A DNA stretch of 60,848 bases, the filler included, from Basidiobolus ranarum (lineage: Eukaryota): assembly GCA_040143965.1 (NCBI GenBank). It is 13 parts of 13 records of this genome, joined end to end, with 100 filler letters (N's around TTAATTAATTAA, not from the genome) between each part and the next. Parts side by side here need not be neighbours in the genome. Positions count along the whole stretch, not along the records: positions 1 to 4,601 come from JASJQH010001896.1; 12 more parts are not named here. One strand, given 5' to 3'. The notes below the pieces were generated by a model. It worked only from the letters and a program-made list of their open reading frames with translations. It was not told the origin of the DNA and did no database searches. How positions within the stretch are numbered: the first letter of the stretch is position 1; the number at the start of each line of letters is the position of its first letter. This document shows, piece by piece, positions 1-57,013 of the stretch. Position numbers and translations under genes: made by a program.

Positions 1-186
1 ATCCAGCCAGGATATCAGGGATGTGACTCATATGGCCATGTTGCCGTAGTTGAAAGCATCAATGATGATGGAAGTGTATACACGAGTAACTGGAACTACA
101 AGGTCAATGGGGAAGGAGGTCCTTATATCACCACTTACGTCACATTCAACACTGGTGAAGGAGTATCATTCATCTGGTATGAGTAG
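1..186 (+). CDS. C-terminal part of a CHAP-domain (cysteine/histidine-dependent amidohydrolase/peptidase) protein, 5'-truncated by the window edge
   Basis: Frame 1 reads IQPGYQGCDSYGHVAVVESINDDGSVYTSNWNYKVNGEGGPYITTYVTFNTGEGVSFIWYE* (TAG 184-186). YGHVAVVE..NxDGSV..SNWN matches the catalytic-His half of bacterial CHAP domains. Not in the ORF track because no start codon is present. Confidence 0.8.
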   Translation: MQPGYQGCDSYGHVAVVESINDDGSVYTSNWNYKVNGEGGPYITTYVTFNTGEGVSFIWYE

Positions 187-614
187 ATACCACTCCTGAT
201 TATAGATACCCACAAAAGATAAAGCAACCAGCTATCTTTTGCTTCTTATTCCCTTTTCATACTTTTAATATAGAGTAATTAGAACATACTGATTGCAAAA
301 TAGAAATATCCTTAACGCGATGCTTAACATGATATATTTATACCTCAATAAAGTATTGTGACCCGAGAATGTTCGGATACCTTGAATTGTAGTGATGATA
401 AGTGAGGAGAAAGTGGTACTTCTATTACGAGAAATGTATAATTCATAGTAAAGCTATCAAGCGGTTACCGTTATGCACAAATAATAAGAAGTGAATTCCC
501 TATTTGTGTACTGAATTCAGTAAATTGATCGAGTTGCATAGAAAAAAACGATGAAATAGCAGGCGCACTTTTATAATACTTGGTTTATGTAAACAATAAA
601 AGTAGAATCAAGAA

Positions 615-1869
615 TCAATGATTGGAATTGAAGACCAAAAGATTAGGAGTGGTGCCCTTCAACCCAATGATTACATTTCTGGTAGCTCTGGAAACAAGTG
701 CGGCGTACACTTGGGCTGGCGAATGCAAACCACCCTGAGATAAGTACAAAGCTGCTACTCCAGCAACGTGAGGAGTGGCCATACTAGTACCAGAGCCTTT
801 GTGGCTAGCTGATGTACTGCCTACCCATGCTGAGGTGATTTCTTGACCAGGTGCGAAGAGTTTAACACATTTGCCGTAGTTACTGAAACTAGCAGCCTTG
901 TCAGTGCTGTTCGTGGCTCCAACAGTGAAGGCTAATCTTGCATTAGCTGGTGAAACACTGCAGGCATCTTTACTATCATTGCCAGCACCTACAATGAAAG
1001 ATACTCCAGCCCTGACTGCAGCATTGACCGCTTGCTTCAGCGCCTCACTGTCATCACCAGCAAGGGACATATTAGCGACGCTCTTACGACCACTGGCCTT
1101 GGCTTGCTTAGCTACCCAATTGATTCCAGAGATGATTCCGGACGTAGTACCACTGCCATCTCCACTGATTACCTTGACGCCAATGAGTTTAACTTTCTTT
1201 GCCACACCATAACTGGCTCCTCCAACTGTACCAGCGACATGAGTTCCGTGTCCATGAAGATCATCAACTGCCTCACCAGTGATGAAGCTGACAGGCAGCG
1301 ATGCTCTGCCTTCAAAATCAACATGTCTGAAATTAATACCAGAGTCAATGATGTATACATCTACTCCTTCACCAGCACGTCCTGGATATTTATATGGAGC
1401 ATTGATATTCAATGCACGTTGGGAGATTCTAGTAAGACCCCAACTTGGTGGATTATTTTGCACTCCCGAGACGGTGAAAATTTTTTCAGCTTCAACATAC
1501 TCAACATCACTGTTTGTCTTGAGCTCGCTGACGAGGGCCTCACTGAGAGTACCAGAGTAAGCATTGAAGTTCTCCAGATTAAACTGGTTCTTGAGTTCAT
1601 TTTTGAGGGAGTTGCTACCACTACGTCCACGATTATATTGATCAAGCTTTGTCTTTAGGAATTGGTCAACTAAAATCCAAATTTCGAATAAGCTTGTATT
1701 ATTATATTTATTATCTTTACCAAGATACTCTACCTTTTGTATAATCAGCGCCTTCTTTGATCTTGACGATGTAACTGTTGGAGATGGCGGCGTTTTGGGC
1801 ATCAGTAAGTGGCATAGCCAAGAGGATAGCAAGAAGAGATCCCAAAGTAATTAAGCGAGCATTGACCAT
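615..1869 (-). CDS. Secreted subtilisin-like serine protease (S8A, proteinase K type) with I9 propeptide; 2 exons (1869-1734, 1669-615)
   Basis: Signal peptide MVNARLITLGSLLAILLAMP; 64-nt GT..AG intron at 1733-1670 restores the frame; triad motifs IIDSG, HGTHVAG, GTSMATPHVAG. Confidence 0.95.
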
Positions 1870-2642
1870 AGTGAAATTGGCAATACTTTTATCAGATACA
1901 AAGAGGAGTTTTATGAATGAAAACTCCTTTGTTCTAGTCTATTTTATACATTTCTTCGTTTTGACGCTTATCTTACTCAGTGACGTAAACAGGATTATCC
2001 TCCAGTTATTGAAACGATACAGTGTACTGGGAATAGAGAACGAAATTAGTGGTATGGCAATGTCGTAATTATATAAACAATCCTATCGTCTATATTTCAC
2101 ACATTTTAGAATGCAGCTAATGCCTGTATATATCAGTCAATGGTTACCACAGTCAATCCAAAGATCATTTCTGAACACACTCCAGATGACACGCGGTATT
2201 TTTTATGTGTGGTTGATCTTTGCCAAGTAAAATCTTAGATGAGAAAATCTACGAGAATAGAACTTGAAAAGTTTGTTACTATAAGATGAAGATACAATAT
2301 TGTCTACCCTCGCTGATCATTACCTCATAGAGTGAATCATTCATTATGTCAATTTTAGAGTACTTTGATGTAGAAATATCCGGATTGTAGAAACCGAAAT
2401 CCAGATTTCTCAAACTTGGGTTACTATTCAGTGAGCTAAGTTAGGAAGGTTGGTGAAATACAATGATGCTCTCACACTGGTTAACTAAATATGTTTAAAA
2501 TATAAATATAAACCTAATGCTTGGCAAAGATGTTCGACTCAAGATAGACATCCTTGTATCTATGGGATATATGTATTACAACTGAAGTATGATATGTTTA
2601 TTGATAACGTAGGCGCTCTTATTCCATATCATATAGAACATA

Positions 2643-3896
2643 TTACTGGTTTGAGTTGAATACCAAGAGATTGGGGGTGACTCCTTTCAATCCTGTGACC
2701 ACATTCTTAGTGGCCTTGGAGACAAGAGCTGAGTACACGTCGGCTGGTGTGTTAAGATTACCTTGGGATAGATATAAGGCGGCAACACCAGCAACATGAG
2801 GACTGGCCATGCTTGTTCCAGAAATTCTCTTTCTAGCCGAGGTACCTCCAATCCATGCTGAGGTAATATCTTGACCAGGTGCTGAGAGTTTGACACATTC
2901 GCCGTAGTTGCTGAAGCTAGCAGCACTATCATTGATGGTACTAGCACCAACAGCGAATGCCAACCCGGCGTTGGCTGGAGAGACATTGCAAGCATCTTGA
3001 CTCTCGTTTCCAGCTGCTACAATGAAAGTTACTCCGGCATTGACTGCAGCATCTACAGCTTGCTTCAGTGCCTCACTATTACCGCCGCCAAGGGACATGT
3101 TGGCAACACTCTTGCGGCCACTAGTTTTTACCTGCTGTGCCACCCAGTTAACACCTGCGATTACTCCGGAGGTAGTACCACTACCACTTCCACTGAGTAC
3201 TTTAACACCAATTAGCCTGACTTTCTTAGCCACACCATAACTTGCCCCTCCAACTGTTCCGGAGACGTGAGTACCATGGCCATTAAGATCATCAGTGGCT
3301 TCACCATCGATGAAACTAACTGGCAATGTTGCTCTGCCTTCGAAGTCAGAGTGTTTAACACTAATACCAGTGTCAATGATATATGCATCTACCCCCTCTC
3401 CCGCTGTATCTGGGTAGTTGTATTGTTCATTGGTATTCAATACACGTTGAGATACTCTTGGTAGACCCCAGCTTGGTGGATTATACTGAGCACCAGAGAT
3501 GGTAAAAATTTGCTCAGCCTCGACATATTCAACATCATTATTTGTCTTGAGGTCACTGACTAGATCTTGACTAAGAATACCAGCATAAGCGTTGAAGTTT
3601 TCCCAAGTGAACTGATTCTTGAGTTCATTTTTTAGAGTATTATTACCGCTACGCCCACGATTATATTGATCAAGTTTTGTCTTTAGAAATTGGTCCACTA
3701 TTATATCAATTTAAAAATTTGTTAACATTACTTTGAATATTACATCTATCACTGACCTACCTTTTTGAGTATCAGCGCCCTCTTTGATTTTGACGATATA
3801 ACGGTTAGAGATATCCACATTTTGTACTTCAGTAATTGGCATAGCCAAGACGATAGCAAGAAGAGATCCCAGAGCAAGTATACGAATATTGATCAT
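2643..3896 (-). CDS. Secreted subtilisin-like serine protease (S8A), tandem paralog; 2 exons (3896-3761, 3697-2643)
   Basis: Signal peptide MINIRILALGSLLAIVLAMP; 63-nt intron at 3760-3698 in the same position and phase as the paralog; IIDTG, HGTHVSG, AAGN, GTSMASPHVAG. Confidence 0.95.
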
Positions 3897-4490
3897 AGTT
3901 ATCAAAGGAAGAGAAAAGAACTATTTTATCATAAGCAGTCAAACTACGAATTTTTATATGTTTATGACAGCACTAAATTCGCAACATTCATGTTGATCAA
4001 CTTTAGAGTCATTTGACTTGTTTCAAAGTCCACCAACCCTGACCCACCTCCCTATGAAATGGGTGTTGAAGTTCTCTCCCTAAGATACCTCAGATTAAGG
4101 CTGAACAGTAGAGATGATTAGAAGAATAGATGCACGAGATATCATATAGTACACTTTTCATCAACTCGATATAAAGATTCTTTCAGTTAGTGAATGAACC
4201 AAATGGATATCTAAGTTAACTCATATAAAGAATTGATTTTCCCTCCTATATTTCTCCCTTCTCCCCCTAAATCCGGATGTTCGGGTCTATCATTTCTATA
4301 TTAGTGATCAAACCATGTTCGTTAGGAATTTGTCTTGGTATCTTCCCATGTAAGATAAGTGAGTAAGCAAAGTAATCTACTTGTTTTCTAATTGAATTCA
4401 ATGCTCTTTCAATAAATAAAAAATCTCAACCAAGAGGAATCACGAAATATTTGAGAAATACACCCAAGTACGTATATAAATAAGATTAAA

Positions 4491-4538
4491 TTCATTGTGA
4501 CTGACATACAGTGTTCATTGTGACTGACATACAGTGTT
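4491..4538. repeat. Perfect 23-bp tandem duplication
   Basis: TTCATTGTGACTGACATACAGTG twice, followed by TT. Confidence 0.9.
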
Positions 4539-4601
4539 GTAAAGACTACATTTACTTGACCATATTCACATGATTGTGGTAACATGGATGGGAAAAGTCA
4601 C

Positions 4602-4701
4602 NNNNNNNNNNNNNNNNNNNNNNNNNNNNNNNNNNNNNNNNNNNNTTAATTAATTAANNNNNNNNNNNNNNNNNNNNNNNNNNNNNNNNNNNNNNNNNNN
4701 N
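4602..4701. other. Artificial contig linker N44-TTAATTAATTAA-N44 (first of 12)
   Basis: Identical 100-nt linkers also at 9300-9399, 13997-14096, 18693-18792, 23388-23487, 28080-28179, 32770-32869, 37456-37555, 42138-42237, 46818-46917, 51496-51595 and 56174-56273. The core gives stops in all six frames. Confidence 0.99.
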
Positions 4702-4725: not shown

Positions 4726-5752
4726 GCCTTTATGGTTTCGACAAAATGGGTTAGTGTCTACACCGTTTAAGCTGTTGTTGTTTACAGGTGACTTATGTTC
4801 CTTTATCTTAGGTCCTGAGTCCTTCCCAGCTCTTCAGATTCATTATTGGCAGGGTATCAAGGAAGCGCTTGAAAAGATAGGTGCCAAAGTAATTGTTACT
4901 GGTGTTTCGAGGCACGTATGTTTCTAAGTCTGACTAAGCAATCCAACACGACTAACATCGTTGCAACCTTAGGACAGGAGAAATTAAACGACGTGCCGAG
5001 GAAATCCATCGTGTCTTAGAGATGACCGCTGCCGGCAATCAAATTAACTTTGTTGCTCATTCCATGGTAAATTTTCTATTCATCTAAATTTCTATCGAAC
5101 TTGTAGTAATATGAAATTTCAGGGTGGTTTGGATTGCCGATATCTCATCAGTCATTTAAAGCCTAAAACGTACAAAGTAAAATCTTTGACTACACTTTGT
5201 ACACCACATCGAGGAAGTCCATTTATGGACTGGTGTAGAGATCAATTTGGTGTTGGATTTGTCTCTCTAGGTGATGTCGCCCAAACGGTATATCCCGATC
5301 GGATGCAAAAGAAGCGATCAATCATCAAATACTTGTCACCATCCAATCCGACTTATCCCCAAGGGTTTCATCCTGATCTTGGGTGGATAAGTTTCCTACT
5401 TGACGAGCCAGCTTATGCTAATCTTACTACCGACTATTGTCGCAAATATTTTAATCCTAATACACCGGATTCTCCCGATGTTGCCTACTACTCGTATGGA
5501 GCCCAAGCAAAGTCACTTTCTTGGGCCTCACCTCTATGGTTTACTCACGACATTATCATGAACAAAGAAGGGGAAAATGATGGCATGGTGAGTCTTGGAT
5601 CTGCTCAATGGGGCAAGTATGTCGAAACCATAGAGGCTAATCACTGGGAACTGAACAATAGATTCCGTATTAGCACTATTGGACAACACCGATTCGACGC
5701 TGTTGACTTCTTTCTCCGAGTGGCAACACAATTGTACCAAGAAGGTTATTAG
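4726..5752 (+). CDS. Alpha/beta-hydrolase triacylglycerol lipase (TGL2-like), 5'-truncated; exons 4726-4749, 4812-4911, 4973-5066, 5123-5752
   Basis: Spliced product GLYGFDKMGPESFPALQIHYWQGIKEAL...INFVAHSMGGLDCRYLISH...TPHRGSPFMDW...ENDGMVS...ANHWEL: AHSMG nucleophile elbow plus Asp and His of the triad; introns of 62, 61 and 56 nt. Confidence 0.9.
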
Positions 5753-8700: not shown

Positions 8701-9399
8701 TCTAAATAAATATATATATTTATAATATTTATTTATTTACTGAACCTTGGTCTGTCAAAATGGCAATATTTGATGGGATATACCTTTGAAAAATGGAAAA
8801 TGACAAACTCGTCCAAAATTACCCCCAGTTTCCGCAGTATCTTAGCTACATATTCATTTTCTTATTTTCTTTAGTTCCAATACAATCAAACATTGAAGGG
8901 CAAGTCACATTCTTCTTAATGTCTTGGACACTTTCAATTGATCCCAAATCCTTACAACAGTTCCAATCAGGGGTTTCTGGCTTCAGCAAGCCATCATAAG
9001 CAGTGCCATAGGTTATTTAAGGAGAACAATGAGTTTTGCAAGAGAAGCACTAATTGTTGTAATGGCATGATAAATTGAGATCTCCATATTGTATACTCGT
9101 CACATGTAGGTCCCAATTAGATTAGTATGAGTCATTACTAAGGATTTATCCTCTCCAATATTTGAAATTACAATTCAAGAACTCACCAAGCAGCACTTCC
9201 ACTACTTGGCTAACGTCCTTCTGTTAGGATACCGGAGCACAACAAGTGTACTCTATTTGTATTCATCTAAATATGGAGAAGGTAAGCATCGTCGCTTTCN
9301 NNNNNNNNNNNNNNNNNNNNNNNNNNNNNNNNNNNNNNNNNNNTTAATTAATTAANNNNNNNNNNNNNNNNNNNNNNNNNNNNNNNNNNNNNNNNNNNN

Positions 9400-13996: not shown

Positions 13997-14096
13997 NNNN
14001 NNNNNNNNNNNNNNNNNNNNNNNNNNNNNNNNNNNNNNNNTTAATTAATTAANNNNNNNNNNNNNNNNNNNNNNNNNNNNNNNNNNNNNNNNNNNN

Positions 14097-17459: not shown

Positions 17460-18345
17460 GCAAGTGTGCTTTGTGAAATTTGTGTGGCTTTTTACTTGCA
17501 TTTAGGTTTGGGTCTAATTTGAACTCTTTGAAAAGTACTAGTTGAGGTTGGAGATCCATGAGTTTTATTTGATGATGTTTTAGCTTGTTGAGAGATGCCA
17601 GGTGTTGGACAAACTTCCAAATTTAGCACTCATCCAACTGGTTTACCTGGTTCCATGGTGAAATGAAGCTTTTTTGTCACTTTGTCTGACTCTGGATATG
17701 CAAATCTTTGTAATGATGTGAAGAATTTTTTAAGTGGGGCAGTAAAGCCTAAAATCACTGGCTCCTTTGCTTTCCCTTGGGTTTACTAACTTCCTGCTAC
17801 TAGAGTACTTCTTTAGCCGTATTCTTTTTTTTACACAGTCTCCAAAATGTTAAACCACTCTTCATCAGAGCAAGTAACAGTAACTCTGACATTCAGAGTC
17901 TTTTGGTTTGCTGGTTTTCCTATGAGATTTCTACTTTCATGTGCCTAAGCAGTTTGGGCCATTGTCTAAGCTTAATGGTTGCACACATATTTCGCTATGC
18001 TAGATTGTCACAGTGACATTCATATGTATGGTGTGGGATTGACTGAAATCCCATATGAGAATTAATTAAGGGAACAGCATGTTGCTGTAACCCAAGTACA
18101 GCATTCTGAAGTTCTTGTATCAAGGTTAAGTGACTACCTAACTGCTGACTAGTTGCTTTCAAACGCTGCATTAATTGCAATATTGCGGCATTATTGCATA
18201 TCATGGCCTGTAGAGCAACTTCATAGCCTTTACTTATGATTGCATATAAATCAATATGGTGTTCTGCTTGTGATTCCCTTATTGTAATAATTCTATCCAA
18301 ATTTTCAACAGAGGGCTGTTCAATAGTGGGCAAAGTAGCCATTTT
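17460..18345 (-). mobile_element. Unclassified repeated element with a decayed coiled-coil-like ORF, copy 1
   Basis: MATLPTIEQPSVENLDRII...QQHAVPLINSHMGFQSIPHHTYECHCDNLA; homologous at DNA and protein level to 40565-41285 (+). Confidence 0.65.
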
Positions 18346-18419
18346 CGAAGTTGATGGTCTTGATGGTGTTTTCGATGAACTTTGCTCAACTATTGATTTA
18401 CTATGTAATCAGGGGATTA

Positions 18420-18692
18420 CAATCTCATCTATTGGAGCATCACTAAGTGAAGATGACTTAGTCATGACACTACTTGGGAGCTTGCCAGATGAGTTTGGGA
18501 ACCTCATAATTGCCCTAGAATCAAGATCAGCACCATTAACAATGGAATATGTTGGTGCTAGGCTTTTTAAGGAAGAATTGCGGAGATCTAATTCTCAGCA
18601 AAATAATGCAGAACAGGCATTTTTTGGAGCTGTAAAACATCCAACAGGCTTCAATAATGGTGCTCCTATTAGGAAATTAATCATCTGCAAGT
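18420..18692 (+). mobile_element. Copia gag fragment (UBN2-like), different family from A
   Basis: SIGASLSEDDLVMTLLGSLPDEFGNLIIALES...MEYVGARLFKEELRR. Confidence 0.8.
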
Positions 18693-18792
18693 NNNNNNNN
18701 NNNNNNNNNNNNNNNNNNNNNNNNNNNNNNNNNNNNTTAATTAATTAANNNNNNNNNNNNNNNNNNNNNNNNNNNNNNNNNNNNNNNNNNNN

Positions 18793-23501: not shown

Positions 23502-23915
23502 TTACTTTGTCGTGGTTTTTTTACTACATTTGCTCCAAACGCCAAATTTTTTCTGGCAACCTCCTGTACAGTGGTCGGATGAGTAACCACACCAACCCCA
23601 TTCACTACAGCACAATCCTGGTGTGCATGAACCGAACCCGGAACCGCATTTCTCATTAAGCTGCTTCCAAGGAGTTGGAGTTGCGGCGGCTTTTGTGGTG
23701 GTTGTCTTTGAAGCTATACCACAGGTACCGAATTTCTTTTGGCAGCCTGTAGAGCAGTAAGCGGAAGTTGAACCACAGTATCCCCATGAACTGCAGCATA
23801 AACCTGGTGCACAAGTACCATACTTGGAGCCACATCGGTTGTAGCTGTATTTCGAGGCACCCTCGATGGATATTGCAGCTAATACAATAATAAGCAGAGA
23901 AAGGAACGATTTCAT
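23502..23915 (-). CDS. Small secreted protein with two hevein/CBM18 chitin-binding domains; 3' end uncertain
   Basis: MKSFLSLLIIVLAAISIEG signal peptide; CGSKYGTCAPGLCCSSWGYCGSTSAYCSTGC and CGSGFGSCTPGLCCSEWGWCGYSSDHCTGGC separated by a Thr-rich linker. Confidence 0.9.
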   Translation of the reverse strand: MKSFLSLLIIVLAAISIEGASKYSYNRCGSKYGTCAPGLCCSSWGYCGSTSAYCSTGCQKKFGTCGIASKTTTTKAAATPTPWKQLNEKCGSGFGSCTPGLCCSEWGWCGYSSDHCTGGCQKKFGVWSKCSKKTTTK

Positions 23916-26775
23916 GATCAAGAGTGAGATACCCGAGAAATCTGAGAAAGTATTAGTGGGATATCATGACTTATAAAGATGATGCTTTCGGACAGTGAAG
24001 ATCGAACACTCCGATTCCAAGAACTGGTTACTTGCCTGACGATAACTCGTTGCTGTAAGCATACTAGAAACTAAATGGAAGTGATACTTGGGGTAACGTA
24101 ACGGTAATACTGCATAAGCCAACGCTAATGCGAGTCGCCCACTAACACGAGGTACAAAATTCGTGATACTCGCCCGAAGAACAATTCTACCCTGAACGTG
24201 AGTAGAAAGATTACCTATCTTACTGAATCTCATTCACACAAGCGAGGTAAAGTGAGTATCCCATATTGGCTGGTTCCCTCTTCATTACTTTGATTGATAT
24301 CAAGTGGCTGGCCGGTTTATCAGGTGTGGTTTCACTTGAGTCGAGTTAAATGCACTGGTTGCCAGTAATATAGATTCATCGAGATCGTGTTCGGATTTAT
24401 TGTGCTCACAGATCTATATGGAGTAAGGTCGGACAAGAGGCTATCTTTATTTAGGTTTTCTGATCCAAATCGCGCCAAGTTAGTAATGGATGTAACCGAG
24501 GTGATTATTTAGGCATATTGCGGAGTAAATATTAAAAGATCACTACTTCATATTTTTTAGGCCCACCGAGCCCTTCACTAAAAAATAATACTCAAGAAAG
24601 TAAAGTCGGCAACCAAAATGCAGATTACGAATTATAGGTGTCAAAATATGTACAGAAGAGTTCCCACCTAATTAGGTATTTAGCCGCACCCCACGTAGTA
24701 GGATTGTTAACAACCAAGATATTGAAGGTGTTCAGAGAAGTTTTATAACGGATCGGCATAAGTAGTCAACTATAACGGACACTTTGAAGGCTGTCATATA
24801 TCTCTGGATAAGGAGAGAAGCAAGTGTCTTAGAAAAGTAATGCGGTGAGCATTCAGGCTCACGGCCAGAATTGAAGCAAACAACAGCAGTTCGTATAGCG
24901 TTCATCAATCTACTTTTCATGATTGCTCATTTTTTCAGTGGTCATACGAGCTATAAATAAACGACAATTACCAGCTCAAGGTAAGCTACACAAGAGATAT
25001 CCAGCCTTTGCTGAGCATCAGTTCCAATTACTACTCGAAATGAGCCACTGTGCCTGGTGAGACCCGAAATTGTTCGAACAAGGTATTGCAAACGAGTGAG
25101 AGACAGAGAGAGATAGGGATTCTGAACTATTCACTGATTCAGATGATTACTTGAGCATCGGCAATCTACATCGTCTCAAAAGGGTTAGGTTAATATCTAC
25201 AAGTGTGCAGCCCCCAATCGAATTACACAAATACTATACATATTATATGGCTTTCTCATCCCCAGATCCGAAGTCTGATTCCTTATCCATTAGGCCAACC
25301 CCCCAACTGCGATCTTCGTGACTGAGATTAGTGTTATCCACTATTGGGAGTCTTGTTTTCAGTTCTGCATACCTGAACGCATTCTACTCTTGAGTAGGAT
25401 GTGAGTTTGAAGGTTAATCTAATACTGTAACTTCGACTTCTAACTTGCTACAACTCCTATCCAGTAGACAGTCCTCCAAATTTCGAAACGAATTATGCTA
25501 TCAAGAAACAAAAATTGCTAATTAATAAGATACTAGGGCTTTATAATTATGTGATGGATTTACATTGAGAATGATCCTAGAGGGCCAAATACAAAACTTA
25601 ATGATAACAGTGTTTGTAGTAGTTTTTGAAAACAGATTGATAATGTTTTATATATTCACCTCATATCTCATATAGATTATACTATTTACCAAGGTAATGC
25701 ATTCATTGATTTACACCATTCGCCTCATAAAATACCAAGAAAAAACGGATGATGTACTTGGGTAATAAATAAACAATCTCTTGGCACTTATTCCTCATAC
25801 CTTTCAGTTGTGTTATTGCTCAAAGAATTGTCATGAACTAATTACTGGAATACGCAAGAATGGCCCACATGAGTGATTAGTTTTTCAATAGCATGGTAGG
25901 AAGGAATATATCTTTCTGATAGTTTGAGGTAATATTATATCCACTTTATTTTTATATTAAGTACAACTTCTATATTTACAGCTGCCGTACACTTATATCC
26001 AATGACATGTCCAATTACTCTCTCAATCATTCGCACTGTTGGATTCGGTTTGAAACTGGCGAGTCAGTACAATTGGGTTTCCGACGGGCTTCTATGTATT
26101 CATTGGATTTTTAACAATCAACATGACATAGTTTTTCTCAAGTGAAAGCAATATCAAGTGCTACCATACGATAACCTGAGTAGATTATCTAAATACAGAG
26201 AAAATTGGAATTCACTTCCATACGTGAAATAAATATCGTACCCAGAACTGAAACAAGGACTTGGCGAAATAAATGGCGCAGATGGAAACTTATAAATGAC
26301 TGCTTACGTAAGATTCGTAGTAAAATATGTTGATAAATCACATCTGACTCCATCACAATCTATTGAATCGGGATCACTCTTCCTGGCAACACTGATCCAG
26401 ATACAGGTAAATACAACACAATCATTTTCACATATCAGGTCTAAGCAATCAACCTGCTCGATAAGGTTACCTTATTATCAGATACGAATCTCTCAGATCT
26501 TTGAATGCAGCGATTAGTCCTCACTTGATGCATTTATTCGTTACCTAGAGGTTTCAAATGTGCGTACTAAGAAATATGTTGTGGGATTGATCGTTCCACT
26601 GGATTCAGAGACCAGCGATATTATATCTAGCTTTACCTTTTAGGTAAAATCATTGAATATACTCCAGCACCAACCGAAGTTGCCTTGAAACCAGTTCAAT
26701 GATAGAATCTTTATTGAAATAAATTAGACTTCTATGAAGTGATCATTAAATTAGCTACGTCTTTGTTAAAGGCAT

Positions 26776-28079
<1,304 letters not shown>

Positions 28080-28179
28080 NNNNNNNNNNNNNNNNNNNNN
28101 NNNNNNNNNNNNNNNNNNNNNNNTTAATTAATTAANNNNNNNNNNNNNNNNNNNNNNNNNNNNNNNNNNNNNNNNNNNN

Positions 28180-28905: not shown

Positions 28906-31394
28906 AAAACCACCAATTCCTTTAATTCTCCAAACCACTTCCAATAGGCTCCCAAATCCTTTAAAAGGTTATGAGCCCCAAGCTTGCACTCTCTGTAATG
29001 TCTACTTCTCAAATTTATGGAACTTTTCCCTTTTCTAAAAAATTGGATGGAACCAATTATCAAGTTTGGAAAGTTAAAATGATAATGCTTCTGCACAAAA
29101 AGGACTTTGGGACCCTGTTGTGGGAGAAGAAAACAATGCAAACTATATGAAACCACAGTTTTACTCCAGGTTAAAATCAAACAAAGTGCCTTTAACACAA
29201 TTTGTCTTAATGTTAAGGACAAATTGCTAATTCAATGTTCAGGAGCTAAAACTGCCAAGAAGATATGGAAAGACTTGGAAGACACCTACCAAACAAGTTC
29301 TGCTTCCAACAAGATGTTTCAAAGAAGACAATTCTTTGACTTAAAGATGAAGCCAGGAGAAGACATCAAATCACAATATAATAGAGTCACTATTCTAGTG
29401 GATGAAATGGCATGGATTGGAGTACCTACTACTGATCAAGATATTGTAGTTACAGTACTGAATAGCCTGTCACACAAGTTTCAGAGCCTAGTAATGTATC
29501 TAGAATCATGAACTGATAATTTGACCTTAAATCATTTATTTGGCAGACTGCTGGATGAAAATTTTCACAAATCAGGATCTAACCATAAGAATGAAGAATA
29601 CTTTTTATAGGCTATGGGAAGCCTTCATATAAAGGTCAAAAGCACTTTAAGAAGAAAAGTAACACATTCTGTAAATTACTGTAAAAGAACTGGCCATTTA
29701 AGCAAAGACTGCTCTAAAAGAATTGCAGAAGAAAACATATTGAATCTGGCAATGTGGTTACAACAGATGATCACTTGTTCATATCTGCTCTATCAATGAA
29801 TACCAACAAGGATTCTCAGACGTGGTATATTGATTCTGAAGCTTCCCAACATTTCACAAATGAACAACATTAGTTTGTGGATTTATGAAGAAATCCCAAT
29901 TAGAAAGGTTTTCATGGGAGATGACCACACATTGGATGCTATTGGAATGGGACCAATTCAAGTCAATTTAACTGGAGCTTTTGAAGAGAAAGTGTATACT
30001 TTTAAGAATGTACTACATGTTCTATAAATTGCCAAGAATTTAATATCTGCATGCAAGGCCACCTCAGAAGGGCAAAAATTCAACTTTGATAAGTTGGGAT
30101 GCACCATCACTGAACAAAATGGGAATTATTTAGCTTTGGGAGAAAAGGGTCACAACTTATACAAACTTACAGATTGTCCAAGAGGTTTATGTGTAAATAT
30201 AAGTTATTTCAACACAGAAACTATACAATTATGGCATGAGAGATTTGGCCACATTGGATTTGATTATTAGAGCAAAATGATCAAAAATTTCCTAATTTCT
30301 GGAATTCAAATTAACCCCCCAACCAAAATGAGAATTTGTAAGGGTTGTATATAGGGAAAACAAGCCAGGTAACCATTCAAGAGCTCTGGTTTAATCCAAT
30401 CTGTCAAAAAATTGAATTTAATTCATTCAGATTTGTGTGGACCTATGCAAAATTTATCTTTAGGTGGAAAAAGATATTTAATCACATTTATTGATGATTA
30501 TTCAAGATACACTTGGGTCTACTTTATGGAAAGAGAAGAAAAAGCTCTCTGTATCTTTAGAGATTTTAAAACACTTGTGGAGACTGAAATTGGAACTAAA
30601 ATCAAAAAAATACATACTGATAATGGTGGAGAATATACTTCAACACTATTTAAGCACTTTTGCAAAGTTTATGGAATTAAGCAAGAAACTACTGCCCTCT
30701 ATTCACCACAACAAAATAGAGTTGCTGAAAGAGCTAACCGGAGTATAATAGAAATGGCAAGATCTAAGATAAATGCACAAAATTTATCTCATAACTTTTG
30801 GGTTGAATCTGTTGCTACAGCTGTATAACTGAAGTATAGGAGTTTTACTAGAAGTGTGTCTAACTCTACACCATATAAGGCTTGGTTTGGAGTTAAACCT
30901 GATGAAAACATATGAGGATCTTTGGATGCATTGCTTATGTCAAAATTATGACCAAAAATTGGTCTAAATTTGATCCAAAAAGTAAAAAACACATAATTCT
31001 AGTTTATTGTACTCACATTCAGGCCTACAGACTCTATCTTACCAAGATTTCCAAGTTAATCAAGTCCAGGGATGTTATATTTAATCGTAATAAGAATATT
31101 TACCCAAAATGACCACAGATGATGACAAAAAACAATTTCCTCCTGATCCAATCATCAAAATTGATTCAAATCAAAACAATGAAGAAAATAGCATTCCTGT
31201 AAACCCTTCTACCAATGCTTTGCCTACTGAAGTGCCCAATTCAATGCCAGAAGTTGTAGTACCTTTATCCCAAGCCAGGAGATCAAATTACATGAAAAAT
31301 AGCCCTGATTAATATAGCAATCAGTCCCAAAATTGGGACTATGCCTGCACAGCTCAAATGCATGAGCCCCAGACTGTAAAAGAGGCCTTGAATG
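28906..31394 (+). mobile_element. Degenerate Copia family A element: LTR 3' end, PBS (28967-28978), gag, protease, integrase
   Basis: Gag from ATG 28998; CCHC knuckle remnant (YCKRTGHLSKDC); protease WYIDSEASQHFT; LWHERFGH; integrase IHSDLCGP..FIDDYSR..TDNGGEY..PQQNRVAER; ends at HEPQTVKEAL. Many stops and frameshifts. Confidence 0.95.
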
Positions 31395-46917: not shown

Positions 46918-48615
46918 GTTAATTTGAATACAGGAAATTGGGCAATTTTCAATCATTTTGCTCAAATAATCAAATCCAATATGGCCAAATCTCTATGCCA
47001 TAATTGAATAGTTTCTTGATTGGAATCACTTATATGTACACATATACCTCTCAGATTTTATGTAAGCTTGTTTATGTTTTGATCCTTTGCTCCCACAGCT
47101 AAATAATTCCCATTTTGATCAGTGATGGTGCATTGTGACTTATGAAAATTGAATTTAAGCCCTTCTGAGGTGGCCTTGCATATAGATATTAAATTCTTGG
47201 CAATATCTGAAATATGAAGTACATCCTTAAAAGTATGTACTTTCCCTTCAGAAGCTCCAGTTAAATTGACTTGAATTGTTCCCATTCCAATAGTATCCAA
47301 TGTGTGGTCATCTCCCATTAAAACCTTTCTATTGGTATTTGTTCATATTCCACAGACCAATGTTTTCATTTGTTGAATGTTGGGAAGCTCCTGAATCAAC
47401 TTACCATGTCTGAGAATCCTTGTTAGTAGTCATAGATAGAGCAGAAGTGAATAAGTGATCTTCTGTTGTAACCACATTTCCAGATCCAGTATGTTTTTCT
47501 TCTTTTGCAAGTCTTATAAAGTAATCTTTGCTTAAATGGCCAGTTCTTTTACAGTAATCACAGAATATGTTACTTTTCTTCTTAAAGTGCTTTTGACCTT
47601 TATAGGAAAGTCTCCATAGCCTATTAAAGCATTTTCCTCATTCTTATCATTAAGTCCTGATTTGTGTAAATCTTCATCCAGAAGTCTGCCAAATACATAA
47701 TTTACGGTCAAATTTTCAGTTTTTGATTCTAGAACCATTACTTGGCTCTGAAACTCATGTGGCAGTCTATTCTGGACTATAACAATGTTCTCTTGATCAA
47801 AAGCAGGTACCATAATGCATTCCATTTCATCCACTAAAATAGTGACTATATTAATTAGTGATTTAATGTCTTCTCCTGCCTTCATCTTTGAGTTAAAGAA
47901 TTGTCTTCTTATAAACATTTTGTTAGCAGCAGAACTTATTTGGTAGGTGGCTTCCAAGGCTTTCCATACCTTCTTGGCAATATTAGCTTTTGAACATTGA
48001 CTTAGCAATTTGTATTTAACATTAAGATAAATGGTGTTCAAGACACTTTGTTCTTTTTTAACTTGGAGTGAAATTTTGGTTACAGAAAGTTTTGCATTGT
48101 TTTTTTCTCCTACAACAGTGTCCCAAAGTCCTTTTTCTGGCAGCAGCATTTTTATTTTAATTTTCCAAACTTGATAATTGAGGCCATCCAATTTTTCAGC
48201 AGAGGGAACAGTTACATAAATTTGAGAAGTAGACATTACAGAGAGTGCAAGCTTTGCACTCTTAACCTGTTAAAGTATTTGGAAGCCTGTTCAAAGTGGT
48301 TTGCAGAATTAGAGGAATTGGTGGTTATTAATTATTGATTTATTGAGTAGAAAGTTGACATTGATTGTTTTGTCAAGATGTAAACAAACTAACATTTAGA
48401 ATATGTTATGGAAGGTCCTAGGAACATGTGTGCAAAGTTTGGGGCTTCTAGCACAAGTTTGAAAAATCTATATATCTGAGAACTTCCAAGGTGGTAAAAA
48501 TATTCTAAGCAAATTCCAATTTATAGTAACGGATAATATTTTAGTGAATAATAAGATAACTAAGTACTAGGCTATATATAACAATATTGGTGTCTAGACT
48601 ATGCTAGTTTCTACA
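46918..48615 (-). mobile_element. Copia family A 5' part: LTR (48615-48268), degenerate PBS, gag, protease, pre-integrase
   Basis: 234-aa gag ORF MSTSQIY...LDGLNYQVWKIKIKMLL; protease DSGASQH remnant; LWHRDLA-type pre-integrase remnant. Confidence 0.92.
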
Positions 48616-56173: not shown

Positions 56174-56273
56174 NNNNNNNNNNNNNNNNNNNNNNNNNNN
56201 NNNNNNNNNNNNNNNNNTTAATTAATTAANNNNNNNNNNNNNNNNNNNNNNNNNNNNNNNNNNNNNNNNNNNN

Positions 56274-57013
56274 CCTGGGTTCATCTTTAAGTTAAAGAAT
56301 TGTCTTCTTAGAAGCATCTTGCTGGTAGCAGAACTTGTTTGGTAGGTGTCTTCCCAGGCTTTCCATACCTGTTGGCAGTTTTAGGTCTTGAACATTGAAT
56401 TAGCAATTTGTCTTTAATATTAAGACAAATTGTGTTAAAGGCACTTTGTTCTTTTTTAACCTGGAGTAAAACTTTGGTTTCAGATAGTTCTGCATTGCTT
56501 TCTTCTCCTAAAACAGTGTCCCAAAGTCCTTTTTCTTGCAGCAGCACTTTCATTTTAATTTTCCAAACTTGATAATTGGTTCCATCAAATTTTTCAGAAG
56601 AGGGAAAAGTTCCATAGATTTGAGAGGTAGACATTACAGAGAGTGCAAGCTTGGGGCTCATAGCCTGTTAAAGTATTTGGGAGCCTGTTTGAAGTGGCTT
56701 GGAGAATTAGAGGAATTGGTGGTTTTCACTAATTGATTTATTGAGTAGAAAGTTGACATTTATAGTTTTGTCAAGATGTAAACAAGCAAATGTGTAGAGT
56801 GTGTTAAGGAATGTCCCAGGAACATGTATGCAAAGTTTGGGGCTTCTAGCACAAGTTTGAAAAATCTATATATCTGAGAACTTCTAAGTGTGTAAAAATA
56901 TTCTAAGTAAATTCCGATTGAGAATAATTGATAATATCTTAGTGAATTATAAGATAGCTAAGTACTAAGCTATATATGACTATATAGGTGTTTAGGCAAT
57001 GCTAATTTCAACA
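56274..57013 (-). mobile_element. Copia family A 5' end: LTR (57013-56666), PBS and gag
   Basis: 348-bp TG..CA LTR, GGCTATGAGCCCC, then MSTSQIYGTFPSSEKFDGTNYQVWKIKMKVLLQEKGLWD. Confidence 0.92.

Follow-up and report, generated by a model that had tools for sequence, protein, structure and literature searches.

The window analysed here is the whole 60,848-nucleotide stretch of DNA from the fungus Basidiobolus ranarum, and its first 186 positions are the 3' end of a B. ranarum nuclear gene for a CHAP-domain protein (peptidase C51), a member of a family which, among named records, occurs only in Basidiobolus. Frame 1 has no stop codon anywhere in positions 1-183 and reads IQPGYQGCDSYGHVAVVESINDDGSVYTSNWNYKVNGEGGPYITTYVTFNTGEGVSFIWYE, and the peptide quoted in the preliminary description of this DNA is contained in it. 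Residues of the family are numbered as in P0001, a paralogue of 181 amino acids, and conservation was scored in alignment A1, which holds 103 rows of the family. The features of the fragment are as follows.

1..183, + strand: final 61 codons of the CHAP gene (peptidase C51), which is truncated where the contig ends (translation, Pfam, 90% identity to P0001 residues 121-181)
22..24, + strand: codon of Cys8 (P0001 128), one of the three extra cysteines of class A (alignment A1)
37..39, + strand: codon of His13, the catalytic His of the CHAP dyad (P0001 H133), at least 90% conserved in the 103 A1 rows and aligned with GHVA of 2k3a
88..96, + strand: Asn30-Trp31-Asn32, with N30 opposite the Glu of 'SEMNY' in 2k3a and N32 (N152) invariant in the 103 A1 rows
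184..186, + strand: TAG stop of the CHAP gene, at the same end position as in the paralogues P0001, P0002 and P0004

The fragment had been assigned to the CHAP domain in the preliminary description, and this was confirmed by Pfam, with which structure-profile and fold matches agreed. Pfam CHAP (PF05257) matched the 61 residues just above its gathering cutoff (26.7 bits, cutoff 26; E 7.8e-06) over profile positions 59-80 of 81, in the last quarter of the domain; the CHAP match of the paralogue P0001 scored 61.9 bits. When the 61 residues were searched against 5.8 billion proteins, 13 of 31 candidates had E <= 1e-3, and the best (E 3.6e-28) was 90% identical over all 61 residues, placing the identity of the fragment far beyond chance. 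Since the alignment begins at residue 121 of P0001, the window opens partway through the gene, and the position of the catalytic Cys (C72 in P0001) is upstream of it, which agrees with the earlier statement that the catalytic Cys half falls outside the window.

Against solved structures, the family profile matched 2k3a best (2.8e-28), followed by 5t1q, 9eum (a hub domain of phage phi812) and PcsB. The evidence on fold comes from a model of the paralogue P0001, the window's own protein being incomplete. This AlphaFold2 (AF2) model, made on the 103-sequence alignment, had a mean predicted local distance difference test score (pLDDT) of 84; beyond about residue 61, as far as the C-terminus, the block means were 92-98. 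Foldseek returned 21 Protein Data Bank (PDB) matches to it at E <= 0.001, all of them CHAP proteins (staphylococcal and streptococcal CHAP wall hydrolases, CHAP tail lysins of staphylococcal phages and CHAP endolysins). Glutathionylspermidine (Gsp) amidase and trypanothione synthetase were weak matches, and only generic bacterial CHAP clusters were matched by the domain in the ESM Atlas. The fold predicted for the family is a papain-like alpha+beta fold. The staphylococcal CHAP hydrolases and phage lysins (2k3a, 5t1q, phi812 hub 9eum/9euf, LysK CHAPK 4csh, LysGH15 4olk) have this same fold and Cys-His arrangement, with profile E values of 2.8e-28 to 1e-21 and a Foldseek probability of 1.00, but are distant in sequence (17-32% identity).

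The fragment keeps His13, Glu18, Asn30, Asn32 and the C-terminal GVSFIW motif, and it has a C-terminal extension of about 30 residues that is common to bacterial relatives. The Glu of 'SEMNY' in 2k3a is presumably a third catalytic residue of that enzyme. In the Basidiobolus family this position is Asn or Asp, and Asn30 of the fragment, like the invariant Asn32, is a candidate for the third catalytic residue, a polar partner that would orient the His. Within the window the fragment is the only CHAP copy found: in tblastn searches with 13 homologues only positions 1-183 were matched, everything else having E >= 0.02.

Two observations go beyond the preliminary description, namely that the window consists of joined contigs, as described below, and that the fragment is one copy in a family of at least 34. 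With P0001 as the query, 53 of 302 candidates had E <= 1e-3, and 34 of these were named as Basidiobolus (18 from B. meristosporus CBS 931.73 and 16 from B. ranarum), a number which is a lower bound, since it counts named cluster representatives in two species. These proteins have 133-296 amino acids and are called hypothetical or 'Peptidase C51 domain-containing' in the public records. Their genes lie on contigs of up to 268 kb. Three members share one contig of 122,520 bases and two locus tags, K7432_016307 and K7432_016308, are consecutive, which points to tandem duplication. Full-length members open with a hydrophobic segment that resembles a signal peptide, as judged by eye from the sequences, and have neither the N-terminal region nor the membrane segment of the bacterial proteins. 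Three architectures were distinguished. In the class to which the window copy belongs, the signal peptide is followed by CHAP; in the second, a linker rich in Asn, Ser and Gly lies between the two; in the third, the signal peptide leads into a Cys-rich module about 60 residues long, after which come a linker and CHAP. No SH3b or LysM wall-binding domains were found in the family members scanned with Pfam.

The Cys-rich module, at residues ~18-76 of P0022, P0023, P0026 and P0041, is matched by no Pfam family. Its look-alikes among Atlas structures were modules in M23 and Amidase_2 wall hydrolases of Myxococcota and small proteins of Ascomycota, with template modelling (TM) scores of 0.54-0.78 over 45-55 residues. 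From these models a wall-targeting function is possible, and we take it only as a lead.

The catalytic residues of the family are well kept. Cys72 is invariant across all 103 A1 rows. Each of the 36 Basidiobolus rows has both Cys72 and Asn152, and Cys72 and His133 occur together in 35 of these 36. The remaining row is P0035 (B. ranarum K7432_012594), which has Tyr at the place of the catalytic His (DGYVAVVE); it may be an inactive paralogue, or the change may come from a sequencing or annotation error. P0001 contains four cysteines, the catalytic one and those at 61, 85 and 128. The latter three are present in all 13 class-A rows of A1, whereas a Cys at 85 or 128 is found in none of the 67 rows from outside Basidiobolus. 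The extra cysteines of class A thus appear to be a novelty that arose after the transfer proposed below, and they may form a disulphide.

No eukaryote other than Basidiobolus was named among the 53 matches obtained with P0001. A vertical distribution across fungi, which the preliminary description had listed as an argument against acquisition from bacteria, was not seen, no other fungus being named among the CHAP matches. As a control, a subtilisin query against the same database retrieved Syncephalis, Mortierella and relatives, chytrids and other fungi at about 50% identity, so the restriction of the CHAP family to Basidiobolus is not due to a gap in the database. The matches that follow those from Basidiobolus are CHAP proteins of Thermogemmatispora and Ktedonobacteraceae and, besides these, proteins called 'surface antigen', all with a domain identity of 54-60%. 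To the fragment itself, bacterial relatives are 47-62% identical along all or nearly all of its length, and a single one is 70% identical along roughly half of it. When 1.84 billion cluster representatives were searched exhaustively with phmmer, 965 matched with E <= 1e-3, 255 with <= 1e-10 and 14 with <= 1e-30; the best 12 were of the Basidiobolus type. In contigs of one bacterial genome per species, the bacterial query P0006 found 29 loci. The four nearest come from a Ktedonobacteraceae metagenome-assembled genome (MAG), a Ktedonosporobacter MAG and two MAGs titled 'Chloroflexia'; the other 25 are mostly from Dormibacterota, with about 40% identity to P0006, and resemble the domain of the fungal proteins only marginally (E 1e-5 to 2e-2).

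The membrane-anchored CHAP 'surface antigen' proteins of the Ktedonobacteria type (Thermogemmatispora sp., Ktedonobacteraceae MAG; P0044, P0051, L001-L004) belong to the same subfamily as the Basidiobolus proteins. Besides the domain identity given above, the two groups have in common the Cys motif GQCT(Y/D)WA, the His motif YGHVAVVE and the C-terminal extension, which ends in GVSF(I/V)W. They differ in what surrounds the domain. The bacterial proteins have 240-420 amino acids; in them the domain either follows a long N-terminal region and a hydrophobic stretch or comes first and is followed by a C-terminal anchor, whereas the shorter fungal proteins have a signal-like start and, in some cases, Asn-rich linkers, added cysteines or the Cys-rich module. 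P0071, P0072, P0095, P0096, P0119 and P0123 carry CHAP at the N-terminus and a hydrophobic C-terminal region, and one of this group, P0072, has an SLT transglycosylase domain ahead of CHAP. A mobile element was considered as the donor and the idea was dropped as unsupported: L004, the only such locus with context, adjoins a polyphosphate kinase gene and shows no sign of phage or plasmid.

A phylogeny against bacterial CHAP proteins, which had been proposed in the preliminary description, placed all Basidiobolus sequences together. The domain was cut from 204 matches and kept where it covered at least 100 profile positions, which with the window fragment gave 192 rows. A first, quick tree of 136 rows contained all Basidiobolus rows, the loci, the ids up to P0060, the first 70 of the 131 further rows and five outgroup loci. 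In it P0117, a divergent CHAP protein of 124 amino acids with a branch of 1.96, joined the Basidiobolus rows with a support of 84. For the following set of 91 rows, P0117 and P0110 (long branches) and L013 and L019 (mis-extracted segments) were removed, and 47 bacterial rows were picked by hand. In the 91-row trees all 37 Basidiobolus rows including the window fragment formed one clade, with a Shimodaira-Hasegawa-like approximate likelihood ratio test (SH-aLRT) support of 99 in the quick tree and a support of 100/100 in the careful tree, which was made from 125 columns and in which the stem of the clade was 0.54. The fragment falls within a class-A Basidiobolus clade of 14 rows (100/98) on an end branch of 0.064 in the careful tree. 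Rooted on three Dormibacterota-type rows, the Basidiobolus clade nests inside the bacterial radiation of Ktedonobacteria type. The nearest rows are P0095 (78/63 alone, 91/87 together with P0096), and next come N-terminal-CHAP proteins with the Ktedonosporobacter locus L004 (61/90). With such weak deeper supports the donor lineage cannot be named more closely within the Ktedonobacteria-type radiation.

The base composition of the fragment resembles that of its host. GC and GC at third codon positions (GC3) are both 0.44 in positions 1-183, compared with 0.46 and 0.37-0.38 in the exons of the neighbouring subtilisin genes, and with 0.56-0.63 and 0.57-0.75 in the same 61 codons of the Ktedonobacteria-type loci L001-L004. 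In this small sample the host-like composition fits an old, ameliorated transfer.

The 60.8-kb window consists of 13 pieces of about 4.6 kb, which are separate contigs joined artificially; it contains 24 runs of 44 N, paired around TTAATTAATTAA. An argument from a shared contig therefore stands on the first piece (1-4601) alone, where the following features lie downstream of the CHAP gene.

187..614, no strand: spacer between convergent 3' ends, 428 bp, AT-rich (GC 0.318, compared with 0.44-0.46 in the flanking coding sequence)
615..1869, - strand: subtilisin gene 1; exon 1 1734-1869, intron 1670-1733 (64 nt, GT-AG), exon 2 615-1669; signal peptide, Inhibitor_I9, Peptidase_S8 (Pfam)
2643..3896, - strand: subtilisin gene 2, tandem paralogue; exon 1 3761-3896, intron 3698-3760 (63 nt, GT-AG), exon 2 2643-3697; Inhibitor_I9, Peptidase_S8 (Pfam)
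4602..4701, no strand: joiner (N44, TTAATTAATTAA, N44), which closes contig 1; nothing past 4601 is linked to the CHAP fragment
9300-9399, 13997-14096, and so on to 56174-56273, no strand: further joiners at 11 sites, pairs of 44-N runs around TTAATTAATTAA

The spliced product of subtilisin gene 1 is identical to B. ranarum K7432_015040 (P0200), and that of gene 2 is identical to K7432_015041 (P0203) and has 77% identity to the exon-2 product of gene 1. Both database proteins are recorded on a contig whose length, 4601 bases, is that of the first piece. Both begin with signal-peptide-like N-termini. These tandem neighbours are ordinary fungal genes, vertically inherited. The earlier statement that the fragment lies about 430 bp from intron-bearing fungal subtilisin genes on the same contig is correct in both respects, with the restriction to the first piece.

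Elsewhere in the window, fungal genes (an MFS, or major facilitator superfamily, transporter, the chitin deacetylase and copia fragments) were considered as fungal context for the CHAP gene and dropped, as they lie on separate contigs. A chitin deacetylase-like open reading frame (ORF) at 26776-28131 (- strand) has Polysacc_deac_1 and a weak Chitin_bind_1 match under the curated cutoff and runs into an N joiner, and a separate ORF at 23502-23963 (- strand) has two chitin-binding repeats; both are on contigs other than that of the CHAP fragment. Fragments of copia-type long terminal repeat (LTR) retrotransposons (gag, integrase core, DUF4219) were found on several small contigs, at 18227-18748, 29086-29511, 30373-30828, 47532-48269 and 56308-56667, and probably explain the assembly breaks there. 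The ORF at 5048-5752 (+ strand, 234 amino acids) had no Pfam match at E <= 0.001; by eye its product looks like a lipase or esterase, which we take as a resemblance only.

We consider it probable that one old transfer from a bacterium to the fungus gave rise to a family of secreted peptidoglycan hydrolases which is used on, or against, surrounding bacteria. A single CHAP cell-wall hydrolase gene of the Ktedonobacteria type (Chloroflexota) would have entered Basidiobolus, the bacterial N-terminal region and membrane anchor would have been replaced by a eukaryotic signal peptide, and repeated duplication, partly in tandem, would have led to at least three architectures. The mature enzyme of about 120 residues would be secreted, and its papain-like Cys-His dyad (Cys72 and His133, with Asn150 and Asn152 assisting) would cut amide or peptide bonds in bacterial peptidoglycan. 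A fungus living among dense bacteria, as in the herptile gut, dung and litter, could in this way kill them, hold them back or feed on them. Horizontal acquisition from bacteria, already suggested in the preliminary description, fits both the distribution, with only Basidiobolus among named eukaryotes, and the position of the clade inside the bacterial radiation. The secreted antibacterial role suggested there is plausible in view of the signal-like N-termini of the paralogues and the joint retention of the catalytic Cys and His.

Several points weigh against this proposal. The visible part of the gene is its last 61 codons only, and everything before them, from the start codon and signal peptide to the catalytic Cys, together with possible introns or defects, falls outside the window; no annotated B. 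ranarum protein that was retrieved corresponds to this copy, the best match among them being 87% identical; and its linkage to the subtilisin genes depends on one 4.6-kb contig. The CHAP class includes amidases that do not act on walls, such as glutathionylspermidine amidase, so that peptidoglycan is a substrate we infer, and the activity of the family is likewise predicted. The 125 columns of the tree are few, the bootstrap had not converged (correlation 0.965), which makes its values rough, and the immediate sister is weakly resolved. P0117 was left out of the 91-row trees; should its source be an organism other than Basidiobolus, the family would be more widely distributed than described here. 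About one quarter of the proteins in the database carry names, and nameless matches could hide other eukaryotes. Finally, the ecological settings of the proposed partners differ, Ktedonobacteria being mainly soil bacteria and Basidiobolus living in the gut.

The position of the fragment at the very edge of a 4.6-kb contig could suggest bacterial contamination or a chimeric join at the contig end. This explanation is extremely improbable, because the closest relatives (82-90% identity) come from two independently sequenced Basidiobolus species, on long contigs, while bacterial relatives are far less similar; moreover, GC and GC3 are host-like, unlike those of the bacterial homologues, and the spacer downstream is AT-rich like the other intergenic region of contig 1. 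It is quite unlikely that the window copy is a decaying or truncated pseudogene in an otherwise functional family. Large, recently duplicated families shed copies, P0035 has lost the catalytic His, and only 61 codons can be inspected; these codons are, however, open up to a stop at the usual place of the family, the residues listed above and the GVSFIW motif are kept, and the end branch is short, so the copy is predicted to be intact.

The preliminary description had further raised the possibility that the CHAP lysin and the two proteases form a secreted bacteriolytic module. Such a set would be co-regulated and kept together by selection, with the lysin breaching the wall and the proteases breaking down what it encloses. 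The three genes do lie within 3.9 kb of one contig, with the CHAP gene and subtilisin gene 1 convergent, and the subtilisins as well as the full-length CHAP paralogues have signal-peptide-like N-termini, that of the window copy itself lying outside the window. Convergent genes, however, have no common promoter, and the arrangement is not recurrent: none of the 12 CHAP-bearing contigs of B. meristosporus coincided with the 10 bearing the closest subtilisins, and none of the 15 CHAP-bearing contigs of B. ranarum with the 13 bearing subtilisins, in a comparison that is a proxy, as contigs were matched by length only, subtilisins were limited to the listed relatives and the contigs of B. ranarum are short. 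In B. meristosporus, the nearest subtilisin to gene 1 (75% identity) is on a contig of 165,975 bp, whereas the closest CHAP genes are on contigs of 176,536, 185,105 and 135,950 bp. Both families are large, which makes a chance adjacency likely. A module is thus very unlikely, the adjacency is most likely incidental, and the interpretation given in the preliminary description is, as a whole, partly supported. Another possibility, which we regard as unlikely, is that the family is secreted and not bactericidal, either trimming shed peptidoglycan fragments so that the animal host detects them less, or cutting another amide substrate, for example fungal or host peptides. The existence of non-wall amidases in the CHAP class, two of which were weak fold matches, would allow this, as would the extra cysteines and added modules, which show evolution after the transfer; Basidiobolus is also a gut associate and occasional pathogen, according to the part of PMC9391592 available to us. 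On the other hand, the nearest solved relatives in sequence and fold are all cell-wall hydrolases, and in the bacterial clade taken as the source the domain lies outside a membrane anchor or is joined to SLT (P0072), as is typical of wall enzymes. The resemblance of the Cys-rich module of the class-B paralogues to the Myxococcota M23 and Amidase_2 modules may point the same way, as a lead only.

The proposed bacterial origin and antibacterial use of the family have parallels. Tick Dae is a eukaryotic case of a borrowed bacterial wall-degrading enzyme. Bacterial wall hydrolases of several other kinds have been found in eukaryotic genomes, where they gained secretion and were duplicated. As far as the portions available of the respective papers go, Trichomonas vaginalis acquired bacterial NlpC/P60 peptidoglycan hydrolases and targets bacteria with them (PMC6299479, PMC10461829), GH25 lysozymes of fungi and other organisms have a bacterial origin (PMC4241558, PMC7954357), and Saprolegnia parasitica has seven secreted CHAP genes (PMC3681718). 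The Saprolegnia genes belong to the same Pfam family as those of Basidiobolus. From all three cases Basidiobolus differs in the recipient, the donor group and a much larger expansion, with its named representatives spread over two species. In Basidiobolus itself, 2-5% of the genes are reported as candidate bacterial transfers, most of them poor in introns and with a base composition like the host's (Tabima et al. 2020, PMC7466969, in the portions available); the composition of the CHAP fragment agrees with this, and the CHAP family would represent the same kind of event in the same organism. A 2025 preprint (10.1101/2025.03.31.646025) reports 19 new Basidiobolus genomes. The main text of Tabima et al. 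contains neither 'CHAP' nor 'peptidoglycan', although its supplementary tables may list these genes, and neither word occurs in the main text of PMC11291939, which surveys transfer between kingdoms in 44 early-diverging fungi. No description of the family was found in the literature on Basidiobolus with CHAP, C51 or peptidoglycan, and the available text of PMC9391592 and PMC8778642, which concern Basidiobolus and peptidoglycan, does not mention it. Transfer of bacterial wall hydrolases into eukaryotes is already known, and the Basidiobolus family would add a case whose proteins have stood under generic public names.

The eukaryotes that have borrowed bacterial wall-degrading enzymes form a small, well-studied set. 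This fungus-specific and heavily expanded family would enlarge the set by a clear case from fungi in which the donor group can be identified. The family would likewise provide a molecular handle on the interplay of Basidiobolus and bacteria in gut and soil, a topic now treated at the level of communities (PMC12400927 and PMC10964425, in the portions available), and would offer a panel of small, naturally secreted and eukaryote-adapted lysins for enzymology. The part most worth following is the size and architectural diversity of the expansion. We propose tentatively, and with more doubt than conviction, that these CHAP lysins, with at least 34 representatives in three architectures, may constitute an arsenal that is the fungus's main means to kill, feed on or shape bacteria, in which subfamilies would serve for different wall chemistries.

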